From IMG/VR virus record IMGVR_UViG_2526164632_000034: a stretch of 3,713 nt of DNA; one strand, 5' to 3'. A program made the translations under genes and the position numbers. This DNA is from a virus. Its lineage: Duplodnaviria; Heunggongvirae; Uroviricota; Caudoviricetes. Below the pieces are notes generated by a model. That model had not been told where the DNA came from, searched no databases, and saw nothing but the letters and a program-made list of their open reading frames with translations. This document shows positions 1 to 3,396 of this stretch, piece after piece. Each line of letters begins with the position of its first letter. Within the stretch, counting starts at the first letter, position 1.

Positions 1-1002
1 TTACCCTCTATTGTCAAAAGGGTTCAATTCAACAGCAGCCTCTAAATGACCTGGAGCAAAATGCGCATAACGCATAGTCATTTTTATATCGCTATGCCCC
101 AGTATTTTTTGCAACACAAGAATATTTCCGCCCCGCATCATAAAATGACTGGCAAACGTGTGACGTAGCACATGAGTTAATTGCCCATCAGGAAGCTCGA
201 TCTTCGCTCTCTTAATTGCAGCGTCAAAAGCCTCATAACATGGTGAAAATAGCGCTCCTCGTTTTTTAGGAAGCATAGCCTGCAATTGAGGTGAAATCGG
301 TACAGTGCGGTTCTTCTTTCCTTTAGTTTTAACAAATGTGATTCGACCGGGCAGTACTTGAGATTGCTTTAATCCTTCTGCTTCACTCCACCGAGCACCA
401 GTCGCAAGCCCAATACGGACAACAACCCCCAAATCTTTATTCCGTGACTCATCACACGCAATCAGAAGGCGTTCAATCTCATCTACATACAGAAACGCCA
501 GTTCCTTTTCTTCCTCACGAAACTTGCGAATACCAGTCAGGGGGTTTTCACCAGACCACTCCCCAAGGCGCTTCAGTTCGGCAAAAACAGCATGTAGATA
601 TGACTGCTCGCGATTAACGGTTGCTTCACTAAGTTTTTTCTTCCCCTTGGGATTCCATTCTCCTGATAGCCTTCTTTCCCGATAAGTAGCAAACATATTT
701 TTGTCAAACTGCGAAGCAAATGGATCTCCCAGCCTGGAACAAATCGCCTCAAGTTTGACTTTGCGCTCTGCACCAGAGGACAAGGTTTTACCGTACATCT
801 CAAACCAACGAGCAATCAACTCAGAAAGACGAGGACCAGAACCATCTTGAAACTCGTCTCCAACTCTACTATTCATTAAACGGCGCTCATAAGAGAGCGC
901 CTCACTTTTTGTCGCAAACTGTTTACGAATGCGTTTTCCCGATGCCCCGTAGGGATAACATTCGCAAAGCCATTTACCTGATGGAATCTTACGAACCGAC
1001 AT
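1..1002 (-). CDS. int: P2-family prophage tyrosine integrase (site-specific recombinase), 333 aa
   Basis: Full-length ORF with stop at 1..3. N-terminus (GKRIRKQF..KSEA) and catalytic-domain blocks (LATGARWSEA, RITFVKTKGKKNRTVPIS, HVLRHTFASHFMMRGGNILVLQKILGHSDIKMTMRYAHFAP) match my recollection of phage P2 Int nearly block for block, including the R..H-x-x-R..Y catalytic residues. The start codon lies 5 nt after the upstream stop with no Shine-Dalgarno. Confidence 0.9.
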   Translation of the reverse strand: MSVRKIPSGKWLCECYPYGASGKRIRKQFATKSEALSYERRLMNSRVGDEFQDGSGPRLSELIARWFEMYGKTLSSGAERKVKLEAICSRLGDPFASQFDKNMFATYRERRLSGEWNPKGKKKLSEATVNREQSYLHAVFAELKRLGEWSGENPLTGIRKFREEEKELAFLYVDEIERLLIACDESRNKDLGVVVRIGLATGARWSEAEGLKQSQVLPGRITFVKTKGKKNRTVPISPQLQAMLPKKRGALFSPCYEAFDAAIKRAKIELPDGQLTHVLRHTFASHFMMRGGNILVLQKILGHSDIKMTMRYAHFAPGHLEAAVELNPFDNRG

Positions 1003-1007
1003 TTTAG

Positions 1008-1355
1008 TTACTTATCACATAAATCAAATGCAGCCTTAGTGACATCCCCCAGACTCTTTTTTAACCCTGGGGCGGCATCATTATCTAGCCAAAATGGATT
1101 ATTGTTATCTAACGGTAACGCACCAAATGTTTTACCTTTTATTCGAGCCAAACCTGTAAGTGCATATAACTTATTATCGTCAAAATTCATTACATAAGGA
1201 TTACCATCAAGACACTGTAATTGAACCTCATCAGTATTAAATGGCCACACCCCATTGAAACTCTCACGTTCAATGGTTTTAAAAGGCATTGCGACGGCGG
1301 AAAAAGAAAACATAGATAAAAAAGTAACTAATAGTTGAACCTTTTTAACTTTCAT
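1008..1355 (-). CDS. Secreted (periplasmic) YebY/DUF2511-like protein, 115 aa
   Basis: N-terminal signal peptide MKVKKVQLLVTFLSMFSFSAVA with an AxA signal peptidase I site and no lipobox cysteine. Two Cys (QLQC and FDLCDK at the extreme C-terminus) suggest a periplasmic disulfide. The blocks WPFNTDEVQLQC, GNPYVMN and C-terminal LC resemble E. coli YebY as I remember it. Good SD (GAGGT, about 6 nt spacer). Hand counts of two 60-nt samples give about 32-38% GC, lower than neighbouring genes. Confidence 0.6.
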   Translation of the reverse strand: MKVKKVQLLVTFLSMFSFSAVAMPFKTIERESFNGVWPFNTDEVQLQCLDGNPYVMNFDDNKLYALTGLARIKGKTFGALPLDNNNPFWLDNDAAPGLKKSLGDVTKAAFDLCDK

Positions 1356-1384
1356 ATCATTACCTCAATTTAGCTCAAGTAAGA

Positions 1385-2035
1385 TTACAAATTAAAAAAC
1401 GCTCTAGAAATGACACCGCCTACCAAACCCCCTACGCAGATAAAGAATATTATTTCTTTTGGATAAAGTCGGATTAATTCTGAAGCACGAAGTCGGACTT
1501 CTGGTAAGGTCGAACTCTCTGTGTGGCTTGATGCCGATTGTTGCTCTAACCACGACAATGCAGACTGTAACTGAGAACGAGTAAGATCGTTTAAACGTCC
1601 TGTACCGAAATTGATATGGCAATACCGCAGAAGTTTTTGTCGAAGTCCACAGTCTTCACTGTTACGTAGTAATAAACTTACAAGAGCCTTACAGGCATCA
1701 TGATCTTTACATCGCTCAAGCATTGCATGCAGAAAACTCTCCGCTGTTTTATATTGATTTACTGTCATATCATCAATACCAGCTACACCAATCTCCGCAT
1801 GTACTTTTTGCCAAATAATAAACGCTTCAGTATTGCTAGCTTCTGCAATAGCAGCAACCAAGCTATTTAGCTCCTTACGCTGAGCCTTAAGCAAAGGGCG
1901 ATCGTCATCATCATTATTCGAAGGGATTGCGATATTGACGGTATGAGAACCATCATATCGCTCTATCTGAATATTCTTTTCGTGAAAATCACGCCCAGCA
2001 ACGCGATTGTTTGAACCGTTTGAGTTGACGGCCAT
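1385..2035 (-). CDS. Tail-anchored membrane protein of unknown function, 216 aa; candidate effector of an accessory/defence module
   Basis: Strong SD (GGGAGGTG) just upstream of the ATG, 15 nt after the upstream stop. About 190 aa of soluble domain (poly-Asp stretch NNDDDD, helical-looking middle) is followed by one hydrophobic segment at the extreme C-terminus (EIIFFICVGGLVGGVISRAFFNL). The N-terminus carries the motif NNRVAGRDF shared with the upstream regulator. I recognise no family. Confidence 0.75.
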   Translation of the reverse strand: MAVNSNGSNNRVAGRDFHEKNIQIERYDGSHTVNIAIPSNNDDDDRPLLKAQRKELNSLVAAIAEASNTEAFIIWQKVHAEIGVAGIDDMTVNQYKTAESFLHAMLERCKDHDACKALVSLLLRNSEDCGLRQKLLRYCHINFGTGRLNDLTRSQLQSALSWLEQQSASSHTESSTLPEVRLRASELIRLYPKEIIFFICVGGLVGGVISRAFFNL

Positions 2036-2050
2036 GTCACCTCCCTACTA

Positions 2051-2455
2051 TCACCTGCCCTTAGTTTCGTTATAGTCACGACCAGCGATACGGTTATTAC
2101 CACCAGAAATATTTAACTCACGTCCTGATGGCTGAGTTTCCTTTTCACTGATCGCACCTTTTAAAGCCCCAATCACCGCGTTTTTCACATCTAACGAAGC
2201 TGCTCGAAAGCGAGTAATCAACTCCTGCTCATCATCGTTATAAGTTTCAGGTGAGTGAATTCCCAACACAACATACTGAACATCAAGGCCAAAACGAGAC
2301 AGCGCTGCCAAATACGCAGCATCAGGAAAGCTATCTCCTTTCTCATATCTAAGCTGAGTTAGCTTTTTGACTCCACCAATGTCGCTCATGGCAACTTGAC
2401 TAAGTCCCAATCTTTCCCTTTCCTCACGCAACCGCTGACCAATATCATTTTTCAT
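2051..2455 (-). CDS. XRE-family (Cro/CI-type) helix-turn-helix transcriptional regulator, 134 aa; candidate prophage repressor or module regulator
   Basis: N-terminal region GQRLREERERLGLSQVAMSDIGGVKKLTQLRYEKGDSFPDAAYLAALSRFGLDVQYVVLG is a textbook HTH_XRE fold pattern. It is transcribed divergently from the rightward small-gene operon, as in P2 C/cox or 186 cI/apl switches. The C-terminal tail carries NNRIAGRDY. No peptidase S24 domain is apparent. Confidence 0.8.
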   Translation of the reverse strand: MKNDIGQRLREERERLGLSQVAMSDIGGVKKLTQLRYEKGDSFPDAAYLAALSRFGLDVQYVVLGIHSPETYNDDEQELITRFRAASLDVKNAVIGALKGAISEKETQPSGRELNISGGNNRIAGRDYNETKGR

Positions 2456-2464
2456 ACAAAAACC

Positions 2465-2493
2465 TTGACAGGTATCTTTTTTGATACCAAAAT
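2465..2493 (+). promoter_or_regulatory. Candidate rightward (early/lytic-type) sigma70 promoter
   Basis: Perfect -35 consensus TTGACA at 2465..2470, with a weaker -10-like CAAAAT about 17 nt downstream (2488..2493). It sits in the 75-bp divergent intergenic region upstream of the 68-aa ORF, which itself has no SD. Confidence 0.35.
2471..2488. promoter_or_regulatory. Candidate operator: perfect inverted repeat GGTATC-TTTTTT-GATACC
   Basis: A 6-bp perfect palindrome with 6-bp T-rich spacer lies in the spacer of the putative rightward promoter. Further GATACC/TATACC half-site-like copies occur at 2522..2527 and 2549..2554. Confidence 0.4.
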
Positions 2494-2530
2494 GATTTCA
2501 CGAGCTATTAGATGATCACAATATACCACT

Positions 2531-2737
2531 ATGAAACAAGTTCTTCACGATACCAGATCACGCATTCCGCGTAACACCGCCACAGGTCCAAGACTGGCAC
2601 TTCGGCTGTCCCTCGAGGAGCGAGCCGTCATTGATGAAATGGCAGCTAAAGAACAACGCTCATCCTCTAACATGGCGCGCATGATCTTCCTTCGCGGCCT
2701 AGAACTAACCCAGAAAGAACAAAACAAATCTTCCTGA
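2531..2737 (+). CDS. Small ribbon-helix-helix-like DNA-binding protein (Arc/Mnt/CopG-like), 68 aa
   Basis: LALRLSLEERAVIDEMAAKEQRSSSNMARMIFLRGLE fits the RHH beta-strand, helix A, helix B pattern (R-L-[ST]-x-E-E ... [ST]-x-[ST]-x-x-x-R). It is the first gene after the divergent promoter. There is no SD and an antisense ORF overlaps, so the call is moderate. Confidence 0.5.
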   Translation: MKQVLHDTRSRIPRNTATGPRLALRLSLEERAVIDEMAAKEQRSSSNMARMIFLRGLELTQKEQNKSS

Positions 2738-2753: not shown

Positions 2754-2957
2754 ATGTCAGGTATAACCATCAATATCAATGTGAATGCCCCCTATGTATC
2801 CCTGCAGAAATATGCAGAGATAACAGGTATCCCTCTTAATACATGCAAAAAGATGTTGGCTGACGGTCGAATTATTATCCGCCCCAAACGCGCCAAAATG
2901 GAAAAGCCTGAAGTAAACCTTGTGGCGATGTTAAAAGACGCTTTGACTAACAGCTAA
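2754..2957 (+). CDS. Cox/excisionase-like small HTH DNA-binding protein, 67 aa
   Basis: SD AAGAGG about 9 nt upstream. The segment PYVSLQKYAEITGIPLNTCKKMLADGRIIIR has the same arrangement as the P2 Cox N-terminal DNA-binding segment as I recall it (P-Y-x-x-F/Y-A-x-x-x-G-x-x-x-x-x-x-R/K-M-x-x-x-G-x-x-x-I), and it sits where P2-type Cox would. Confidence 0.55.
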   Translation: MSGITININVNAPYVSLQKYAEITGIPLNTCKKMLADGRIIIRPKRAKMEKPEVNLVAMLKDALTNS

Positions 2958-2978: not shown

Positions 2979-3329
2979 ATGAAAAAAAACGCTAATAATC
3001 CATACTCCAAATTTCGTAATGGCGTAGAACGCCATGTACACCACGTCGCTACCAGTGCATCACGTAGTAACAGTCGCTATAACCTGAACGAGACGCACGC
3101 AACACCGGATGGCCACGCTGTAAAACAAATCGGCGAGCATGCCTGGCTGATTGAGAAAGCTGGAATCGTGGTCCACAAATGCCCACGCAATCCGTTTACC
3201 GGAAACCGCATTTTTGCTCTAAGCAGTGGCGACAATCAGTTCGGGCAGGATTTCACATTATACGAAGCACTTCGCACGGTTGATCGTCTGCTTCGCGGGC
3301 AAAGTTTTATTAAACAGGCTGATTTATAA
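2979..3329 (+). CDS. Hypothetical protein, 116 aa (prophage early-region gene of unknown function)
   Basis: Intact ORF with a weak RBS, same strand and tightly spaced after the Cox-like gene. No family recognised from the translation. Confidence 0.5.
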
Positions 3330-3339
3330 CAGGTGCTTT

Positions 3340-3355
3340 ATGACCAAAGACCATG
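3340..3355 (+). pseudogene. Possible 5-prime stub of a prophage gene truncated by the IS2 insertion
   Basis: AGGTG SD-like sequence at 3332..3336 followed by ATG at 3340 and five codons (MTKDH) that run directly into the IS2 terminal repeat at 3356. The reading frame continues into IS2 and stops after about 21 codons. Confidence 0.25.
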
Positions 3356-3396
3356 TAGACTGGCCCCCTGAATCTCCAGACAACCAGTATCACTTA
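3356..3396. repeat. IS2 terminal inverted repeat (orfA-proximal end), about 41 bp
   Basis: Begins with the characteristic TAGACTGGCCCC...CCAGACA...TATCACTTAA end sequence. The exact inner boundary is approximate without the partner end. Confidence 0.65.

Follow-up and report, generated by a model that had tools for sequence, protein, structure and literature searches.

Matched terminal motifs in a presumed prophage repressor and its conserved, predicted membrane-anchored partner, and an adjoining exchangeable cargo slot at the left end of a P2-family prophage

We analyzed a stretch of DNA of 3,713 nucleotides (nt), hereafter called the window, from the Caudoviricetes record IMGVR_UViG_2526164632_000034 of IMG/VR. 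This DNA represents the left end of a P2-family prophage, and its gene layout was agreed by six-frame open reading frames (ORFs), family scans, and database matches (Table 1). Read leftward on the minus strand, the gene for an XRE-type helix-turn-helix (HTH) protein, the presumed immunity repressor, is followed by the gene for a protein of 216 amino acids (aa) with an Flk_N domain and a predicted C-terminal membrane anchor, which we call the partner, then by a gene for a DUF2511/YebY-like protein and by the integrase gene int. An earlier reading of this DNA, referred to below as the original prediction, had described the two middle genes as an accessory cassette inserted between the regulator and int. 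Their position was confirmed, and the ORF listing gave exactly the predicted intergenic gaps of 15 nt (2036-2050), 29 nt (1356-1384), and 5 nt (1003-1007). The two genes did not, however, behave as the single unit that had been proposed: the partner follows the repressor, with which it shares a co-varying terminal motif, whereas the DUF2511 gene is swappable cargo in a slot next to int.

Table 1. Features of the window and of related loci. Positions refer to the window unless a locus is named.
Feature	Locus	Residues	Position	Strand	Basis or remark
int, P2-family tyrosine integrase, 333 aa	window		1-1002	-	Pfam Int_N (E=5e-32), Phage_integrase (E=2.5e-22)
Exchangeable segment	window		1007-1535	-	Partner linker and anchor, plus cargo gene
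DUF2511/YebY-like secreted protein (predicted), 115 aa	window		1008-1355	-	Pfam, PHROG, and PDB matches
Partner, 216-aa Flk_N protein, predicted tail-anchored	window		1385-2035	-	NCBIfam Flk, PF27202, phrog_5825
Partner C-terminal membrane anchor (predicted), PKEIIFFICVGGLVGGVISRAFF	window	192-214	1394-1462	-	Helix in AlphaFold2 (AF2) model
Flk_N helical domain, most conserved part of partner	window	37-166	1538-1927	-	NCBIfam match; many invariant columns (alignment A1)
Partner N-terminal motif, NSNGSNNRVAGRDFHE	window	4-19	1979-2026	-	Matches repressor tail
XRE-type HTH protein, 134 aa, presumed immunity repressor	window		2051-2455	-	Pfam HTH_31/HTH_3; PHROG repressor/regulator families
Repressor C-terminal tail motif, LNISGGNNRIAGRDYNE	window	114-130	2066-2116	-	
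Divergent control region	window		2456-2530		Between HTH and Arc-like genes
Arc-like gene, early operon start	window		2531-2737	+	phrog_3431 (E=9.8e-29)
Cox-like gene	window		2754-2957	+	phrog_575 (E=1.3e-27)
DUF4761 gene	window		2979-3329	+	PF15958 (E=1e-65)
IS2	window		3356 to window end		
Repressor tail QQFNGPVGTVTTGDVVN; partner N-terminus QQFHGAVEQVAAGDIKN	L022				Motif pair
Repressor tail GDVLGNVIKGNVTM; partner N-terminus GEVGNVVSGDVTI	L026				Motif pair
Repressor tail FNAPISGGEFAARDIVNH; partner N-terminus FNNQIHDGQFAGRDIVNN	L028				Motif pair
Repressor tail QVFNAEVGQAIRAKTLKQ; partner N-terminus QEFNEPVGQVIQAETVTQ	L029				Motif pair
Repressor tail GEGQIAGGNIY; partner N-terminus TAEQIAGRDIY	L181-187				Motif pair
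118-aa Zn-ribbon and transmembrane (TM) protein in partner position	L173		2902-3258		No Flk_N
151/152-aa two-TM protein in partner position	L163; L168		2912-3367; 2912-3370		No Flk_N
341-aa coiled-coil and TM protein in partner position	L178		3008-4033		No Flk_N

Relatives of the partner were gathered, together with their gene context, from a protein database, species-representative genomes, and viral contigs. In every locus retrieved via the partner (46 non-identical and 42 near-identical), the partner gene was located beside a repressor gene of this XRE type. All P2-like relatives showed the order DUF4761 <- Cox <- Arc, then HTH -> 216-aa homologue -> slot -> int; the HTH and partner genes were separated by 2-18 nt. 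The order of the pair was observed in Klebsiella, E. coli, Rosenbergiella, Mixta, Izhakiella, Enterobacter, Erwinia, Symbiopectobacterium, Hafnia, and Serratia and held in 80 viral contigs, and the pair was also present in Mu-like prophages with an rve transposase. When the search was reversed and started from the repressor, 33 diverged loci were obtained, of which 29 had an Flk_N partner immediately downstream. In the remaining four, a different membrane protein occupied this position, and its N-terminus matched the tail of its own repressor. Since these four non-Flk_N partners retain both a membrane anchor and, at the N-terminus, the matched motif, these two are the constant features of the partner, and because membrane proteins without Flk_N still begin with the matching motif, the motif behaves as a portable module. 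In a Ralstonia P2-like phage, the repressor and partner genes are convergent and the motif is still matched; the partner homologue of Ralstonia has no TM segment. These results indicate that the repressor and its partner are a conserved pair and together form one type of prophage immunity module, which occurs among Proteobacteria in both P2-like and Mu-like prophages. The tail-anchored gene, which had been taken for an accessory gene, is a core gene of this module by the searches in both directions. As a separate observation, a contig of a Mu-like prophage (L022) encodes a TIR_2-domain protein (3990-4862) two genes downstream of the Flk_N partner, which suggests a defense-type gene beside the repressor-partner pair.

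The N-terminus of the partner repeats the motif of the C-terminal tail of the repressor, NNRxAGRD[FY]xE. Residues S5, G7, N10, R11, R15, D16, and E19 of the partner motif (alignment A1) and S117, G118, R122, A124, G125, R126, D127, and E130 of the repressor tail (alignment A2) were invariant. Across enterobacterial relatives, both copies of the motif were nearly invariant, and the tail of the repressor kept this near-invariance while the HTH domains diverged to 33-62% identity. In distant relatives, including Mu-like prophages and the Ralstonia phage, the motif was altered alike in both proteins (Table 1). Co-variation was tested by scoring repressor tails against partner N-termini and comparing the cognate pairing with permuted pairings. 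With 7 motif types, only 3 of 5,040 permutations reached the observed sum. With 11 motif types, 200,000 permutations averaged 294 and rose to no more than 470, and none attained the observed sum of 498. Identical residues of the two motif copies were encoded by the same codon only ~40-60% of the time, which argues against recent gene conversion. The nucleotide identity of the two copies was 53-69% (~59% in the window, 30 of 51 positions), with many synonymous differences. The motif co-varies between the two proteins and is under purifying selection in both of them across genera.

We also characterized the partner protein itself. The NCBIfam model of Flk (NF007987) matched residues 37-166 of the 216-aa protein over profile positions 20-149 of 339, with 58.1 bits and E=8.6e-16, and phrog_5825 matched with E=2.3e-102. 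The Flk_N model PF27202 was not part of the Pfam library used to scan the window; its assignment was available precomputed for nearly all listed homologues of the 216-aa protein and for the neighbors in the context table. In the AF2 model of the partner (mean predicted local distance difference test [pLDDT] score of 70), residues 1-41 were disordered and were followed by a helical domain at residues 50-171, a linker, and a terminal helix at residues 192-214. The hydrophobic character of this helix, which ends two residues before the C-terminus, marks the protein as a predicted tail-anchored protein, and a hydrophobic C-terminus was found across the partner family. The partner is accordingly predicted to be an inner-membrane protein with a cytoplasmic Flk_N domain. 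A PDB sequence search with the partner gave only a chance match to a TM segment, and neither the partner nor the DUF2511 gene matched a PADLOC defense model.

When 1.8 billion representative proteins were searched exhaustively with a profile, only 135 members of the partner family were identified. These fell into three groups, namely, phage-type proteins of ~185-225 aa, true Flk proteins of ~330-430 aa, and some forms without an anchor. The representatives of true Flk were 326-433 aa in length and contained two Flk_N stretches without the N-terminal motif. The 216-aa protein did not reach the equivalog cut-off of Flk (353 bits), and it is therefore regarded as a protein sharing a domain with Flk and not as an Flk orthologue. 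Among 50,697 phages in GenBank searched by tblastn, relatives of the partner were carried only by Escherichia phage 520873 and three Ralstonia phages, so that no characterized phage gene is available for comparison. Phage-type members of the family are more widely spread than Flk, and they include that of a Ralstonia phage. Speculatively, host Flk may derive from a phage partner gene as its domesticated descendant. In the window, the HTH and partner ORFs are in frame and separated by TGA TAG TAG. An origin of the pair by splitting of one gene was also considered; no HTH-Flk_N fusion was present among the 135 family representatives, and this origin hence has no direct support.

The segment between the conserved part of the partner and int was delimited by comparison with three relatives carrying cargo other than that of the window (L071, L008, and L073). 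In blastn analysis, homology extended over positions 2600/2092-1536 and 1006-1, with none between. The breakpoint at 1536 corresponds to approximately codon 167 of the partner, just past the conserved domain, and that at 1006 is the start of int; these two breakpoints define the exchangeable segment listed in Table 1. The GC content of this segment is 0.371, compared with 0.41-0.47 in its flanks. Only this segment is exchangeable, and one boundary lies inside the partner gene, which does not agree with a cassette of two complete inserted genes. The proposed comparison with related prophages, asking whether the region is a variable hotspot, gave an affirmative answer for the part next to int.

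In relatives, the slot was 302-1850 nt in length and contained at least 10 unrelated cargo families. DUF2511 was found in the window and in Rosenbergiella and others. Acidic DUF8087 proteins of 81-108 aa, Zn-ribbon proteins, XhlA-like tail-anchored proteins, and membrane proteins of 242-244 aa were each found in several relatives, as was a 291-298-aa protein carrying a BRCT domain at its C-terminus (including L078, L099, L103, L108, and L109). A BRCT and WYL-like protein of 288-295 aa was found in Klebsiella and Enterobacter, where it is common, and small secreted proteins were found in single loci. In one locus (L019), the slot was empty. In L071 and L072, the repressor and int were 94% and 94-95% identical to those of the window, respectively, but the partner was only 71% identical, and the cargo was DUF8087. 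The divergence of these partners was limited to the linker and anchor. The conserved flanks and different cargo of L071 and L072 indicate that the slot was exchanged recently within one immunity type. When seven sampled cargo proteins were examined with PADLOC, no convincing defense family was obtained, and only weak matches to WYL and PDC-S48 were observed. The slot, a small locus of high turnover between conserved phage genes as prophage hotspots are defined, is a cargo hotspot, and hotspots of this kind have been described before in P2-related phages. These results indicate that the gene next to int is a new member of a known hotspot type and that the gene next to the repressor is a conserved constituent of the immunity module.

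The cargo protein of the window matched PF10709 (DUF2511) with 28.4 bits against a cut-off of 21, over profile positions 2-87 of 87, and matched phrog_2950 with E=8.7e-40. Residues 34-113 matched the PDB entry of YebY (7n0j) with E=0.0027. A signal peptide at residues 1-22, ending in AVA, could be read from the sequence, followed by W37, C48, and C113. In YebY, Trp37 is conserved, and Cys48 and Cys113 form a periplasmic disulfide (PMC8689200). The 115-aa protein is thus predicted to be a secreted, disulfide-bonded, YebY-like periplasmic cargo protein (moron). The phage-type DUF2511 subfamily is small, with 18 clusters from the same genera as the partner. The gene is not located in the yobA-yebZ-yebY copper operon but between the partner gene and int; the presence of a DUF2511 gene in a prophage repressor-int context had already been remarked in passing (PMC8689200). 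Its location in a lysogeny module and its predicted envelope site are shared with exclusion genes of the Glo and Ltp type. By analogy with these, the DUF2511 protein would most plausibly act on the envelope, either by excluding superinfecting phages, as Glo does, or by giving protection from an agent that acts there.

A simple consensus scan predicted no terminator-like site on the minus strand of the whole window, in agreement with the original prediction. Shine-Dalgarno sequences were read from the sequence before both accessory genes (GGGAGGTGA and GAGGT). The gene order, the tight spacing, and the scan result make it plausible that these genes are co-expressed with the repressor, as had been predicted. 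In the control region, a promoter scan detected a sigma-70-like early promoter at 2465-2493 on the plus strand (TTGACA-17-CAAAAT, 10/12 matches). A perfect palindrome (GGTATC-TTTTTT-GATACC) at 2471-2488 overlaps this promoter-like site and is a candidate operator. More half-sites similar to GATACC are located near the palindrome, and a repeat search of the control region gave no clear operator set. On the minus strand, the site at 1080-1108 is sigma-70-like (ATAACA-17-GATAAT, 9/12 matches) and is located ~80 nt upstream of the int start.

The closest sequenced phage was Escherichia phage 520873 (Peduoviridae, Xuanwuvirus), with 97% identity to the window. Prophage Sp13 of O157:H7 Sakai (ECs_2617-2620) and a prophage of enterotoxigenic E. 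coli (ETEC) H10407 were identical or nearly identical to the window. At least 80% of the window was found in 504 of 5,426 complete E. coli genomes, and the locus is therefore carried by roughly one in ten of these genomes, including Sakai and H10407. The products of the two accessory genes are also conserved as proteins in several genera, as expected of genuine genes. The HTH gene is labeled "phage repressor protein" in Sp13. In all related loci, int was 74-96% identical. The order of the Arc-like, Cox-like, and DUF4761 genes, with the HTH gene divergent from them, was common to all P2-like relatives, and this context defines the type of immunity module. The arrangement with which the locus had originally been compared, in which the repressor gene adjoins int as in P2 and 186, was observed in P88, a phage of the same genus, whose C repressor gene directly adjoins int with no genes between. 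The window differs from this arrangement by its two intervening genes. No DNA similarity was detectable between its repressor region and that of P88, and the window repressor is of the XRE type.

Some further observations concern the annotation and state of this prophage. An ORF beginning at 3340 is interrupted at 3356 by IS2 after five codons (ATGACCAAAGACCATG, then TAGAC), and intact relatives have a 95-aa ORF at this site. The E. coli matches listed all end at 3355, and the insertion is therefore specific to the source strain, in which the early operon is probably blocked by it. In RefSeq records, a 45-aa ORF is annotated on the minus strand at 2545-2682 (e.g., ECs_2621), opposite the 68-aa Arc-like ORF of the plus strand. 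Since the plus-strand ORF matches phrog_3431 (E=9.8e-29), the 45-aa ORF was probably assigned to the wrong strand. In the GenBank record of phage 520873 (L002, NC_049344, 1039-3065), the int, DUF2511, and partner genes are each fragmented by frameshifts, from either sequencing errors or decay.

On balance, we lean toward an explanation in which a repressor-partner pair coupled by the matched motif and an exchangeable cargo slot together constitute one leftward lysogenic unit. The matched motif and the conserved pairing argue that the Flk_N protein is a partner of the repressor and not a stand-alone defense protein. Because the motif co-varies by lineage and is kept when the middle domain of the partner is replaced, it may serve as the coupling contact between the repressor and the membrane-anchored partner. 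This contact could be formed by direct strand-to-strand pairing of the two motif copies. Alternatively, both copies could compete for the same site, on the partner domain, an antirepressor, or a protease. Through the contact, the partner would tune or gate the activity of the repressor by tethering, buffering, or release and would be part of the immunity switch. The DUF2511 cargo would be expressed from the lysogenic operon as a moron.

Several points weigh against this explanation. Within the large NNRxAGRD group, cognate pairs ranked 1-11 of 18; the motif is too uniform there, and the co-variation signal therefore comes from ~10 other lineages, some of which were sampled once. We infer the motif contact from sequence, and the motif region was unstructured in the AF2 model, with pLDDT below 50. 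The HTH protein is presumed to be the immunity repressor from its position and annotation, and co-transcription is suggested by the short gaps and a simple scan for terminators. The DUF2511 gene contains the promoter-like site at 1108-1080 (-), which may be a chance match or may drive int separately. Furthermore, a stoichiometrically co-expressed tether makes no obvious regulatory sense without a further signal. As for the cargo, DUF2511 occurs in phages without any reported phenotype, and K139 Glo and DUF2511 are unrelated in sequence.

A more general proposal, which we make only tentatively, is that the pair represents a widespread and undescribed prophage immunity switch in which an XRE repressor is coupled to a co-encoded membrane protein via a matched terminal peptide. 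Lysogeny maintenance or immunity would in that case be under control from the inner membrane, for example, through tethering of the repressor, buffering against an antirepressor, or release upon an envelope or infection signal. The repressor-partner pair and the matched motif were not found in the searchable literature, and nothing relevant to Flk_N or Flk-like phage proteins or to membrane-sequestered prophage repressors was found in the literature searched; the locus tags ECs2618-2620 appeared only in a genome paper.

We consider it unlikely that the partner is a membrane toxin or abortive-infection effector that is held inactive by the repressor via the motif and that would be freed, and arrest the cell, once the repressor is removed by an antirepressor or an incoming phage. 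The layout is like that of toxin-antitoxin systems, since the gene for a small membrane protein begins 2-18 nt after that for an XRE protein, and a matched motif implies specific recognition. Partners with different middle domains all keep a membrane segment, and defense-like neighbors are present, as seen for TIR_2 in L022 and for the BRCT/WYL-like cargo. However, the Flk_N domain is far more conserved than the anchor, and the anchor is swapped together with the cargo, which would be unexpected if the anchor were the killing element. The absence of a TM segment in the Ralstonia homologue and the lack of similarity to known toxins or PADLOC models also argue against an effector of this kind.

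A single two-gene module for defense or superinfection exclusion, comparable to rexAB and composed of the tail-anchored and DUF2511 proteins, appears quite improbable, although it was the function originally proposed. Besides DUF2511, at least 10 further cargo families accompany the partner, and in L019 the slot is empty; L071 and L072 combine a 94%-identical repressor with different cargo. The partner tracks the repressor, not the cargo, and in Mu-like prophages no int gene is nearby. In addition, neither gene matches PADLOC. Such a module would be in keeping with the envelope association and tight spacing of both genes in a terminator-free lysogenic unit, with the co-occurrence of phage-type DUF2511 and the partner in several genera, and with a position known for exclusion and defense genes (K139 glo; PMC9122126; Ltp, PMC3952083). 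The proposal is thus supported only in part: the position holds, but the joint function of the two genes as a defense module is not supported. The position of DUF2511 had been noted (PMC8689200), and the hotspot type had been published (PMC9122126).

The matched motif could also have no function, as a relic of a duplication at the gene junction or a product of repeated gene conversion, with the partner being an ordinary conserved hypothetical protein. The motif-coding stretches are ~40-90 nt apart in direct orientation, so that slippage or conversion is possible, but we regard this as very improbable: the copies are only 53-69% identical with many synonymous differences, purifying selection acts on the motif in both proteins across genera, and the match persists in the convergent arrangement and with unrelated partner domains. 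Finally, the possibility that the partner is a phage copy of Flk acting on the flagellar type III export gate (FlhA/FlhB) and altering motility or flagellin export, with its adjacency to the repressor being incidental, can be given hardly any credence. The Flk_N domain and tail-anchor architecture are common to both, and Flk inhibits the secretion-specificity switch and interacts with FlhA (PMC13344023), but the partner scores 58 bits against a cut-off of 353, has one Flk_N stretch and not two, and has homologues in Ralstonia phage and Mu-like prophages outside Flk-bearing enterobacteria, and the motif shared with the repressor and the motif-bearing non-Flk_N partners would be left unexplained.

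If the coupling of repressor and partner through the motif is correct, the link from the motif to a membrane anchor would represent a new wiring of the lysis-lysogeny switch. It would also open a first functional approach to the Flk_N domain, whose only other known bearer is Flk, a poorly understood flagellar regulator. We regard the matched, co-varying motif as the most interesting result of this analysis, and it is directly testable. The slot has exact boundaries, one of them inside a gene, and can be mined for lysogenic-conversion or anti-phage genes in short contigs. It extends the K139-type hotspot to enterobacterial P2-like prophages.

The nearest precedent for the slot is found in K139, where Glo is also the nearest precedent for the DUF2511 protein by position and predicted location. 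A hotspot between cI and int has been described in K139-like P2-related Vibrio phages, where it carries restriction-modification (RM), Septu, and PARIS systems (Rousset et al. 2022, PMC9122126). The region from int to the primase gene accounts for 8% of P2 defense systems (bioRxiv 10.64898/2026.02.27.708500), and Ltp is encoded by an exclusion gene in a lysogeny module (PMC3952083). The annotation of K139 gives the gene order cI-orf2-glo-int, with orf2 and glo belonging to the lysogenic operon of PL, and glo is labeled "periplasmic protein; involved in phage exclusion." The orf2 product, a BRCT protein (L188, 2194-3099), is a full-length homologue of the 291-298-aa cargo of the slot, with 32% identity and E=3e-47. 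The 288-295-aa BRCT and WYL-like cargo is unrelated to this orf2-type cargo. Both systems belong to the P2 family, show cargo turnover, and place accessory genes between repressor and int on what would in the window also be a lysogenic transcript, and the soluble periplasmic exclusion protein Glo occupies the same position as DUF2511. By contrast, K139 has a CI-type repressor (PF07022 and CI_C) and neither an Flk_N partner nor the tail motif, and the slot boundary inside the partner gene is a feature of the window. Also, K139-like hotspots carry defense systems, whereas the cargo sampled from the slot was not recognized by PADLOC.

Flk and YebY are the closest described relatives of the two proteins encoded between repressor and int. 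Flk is a proven tail-anchored protein (PMC6794478) that inhibits the flagellar secretion-specificity switch and interacts with the cytoplasmic domain of FlhA (PMC13344023). The partner resembles Flk in its Flk_N domain and in the predicted arrangement of a cytoplasmic body on a C-terminal membrane anchor. It differs from Flk in its length of 216 aa with one Flk_N stretch, compared with ~330-430 aa and two stretches, in its extra N-terminal motif, and in being prophage-borne and always paired with an XRE repressor. The cargo protein resembles the DUF2511 proteins MlbQ and YebY, the latter from the AZY operon of E. coli, in passing the DUF2511 cut-off, in its match to 7n0j, and in its signal peptide, Trp37, and Cys48/Cys113. 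It differs as a member of a separate small subfamily that is encoded as prophage cargo between the repressor module and int, away from yobA-yebZ.

Two well-studied systems invite comparison with the repressor and its partner. In lambda lysogens, rexAB are co-transcribed with cI, and one of the products is a membrane protein. The window is similar in having genes alongside the repressor gene, one of which encodes a predicted membrane protein, but there is no similarity in sequence or domains, a shared motif ties the membrane protein to the repressor, and the second gene is freely exchangeable. In E. coli, the repressor Mlc is sequestered at the membrane by PtsG. The likeness here is one of function only, namely, that the activity of a DNA-binding repressor would be set by its binding to an inner-membrane protein. 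Mlc and PtsG have no homology to the proteins of the window, in which the repressor and its membrane partner are encoded together and would recognize each other via a matched terminal peptide.

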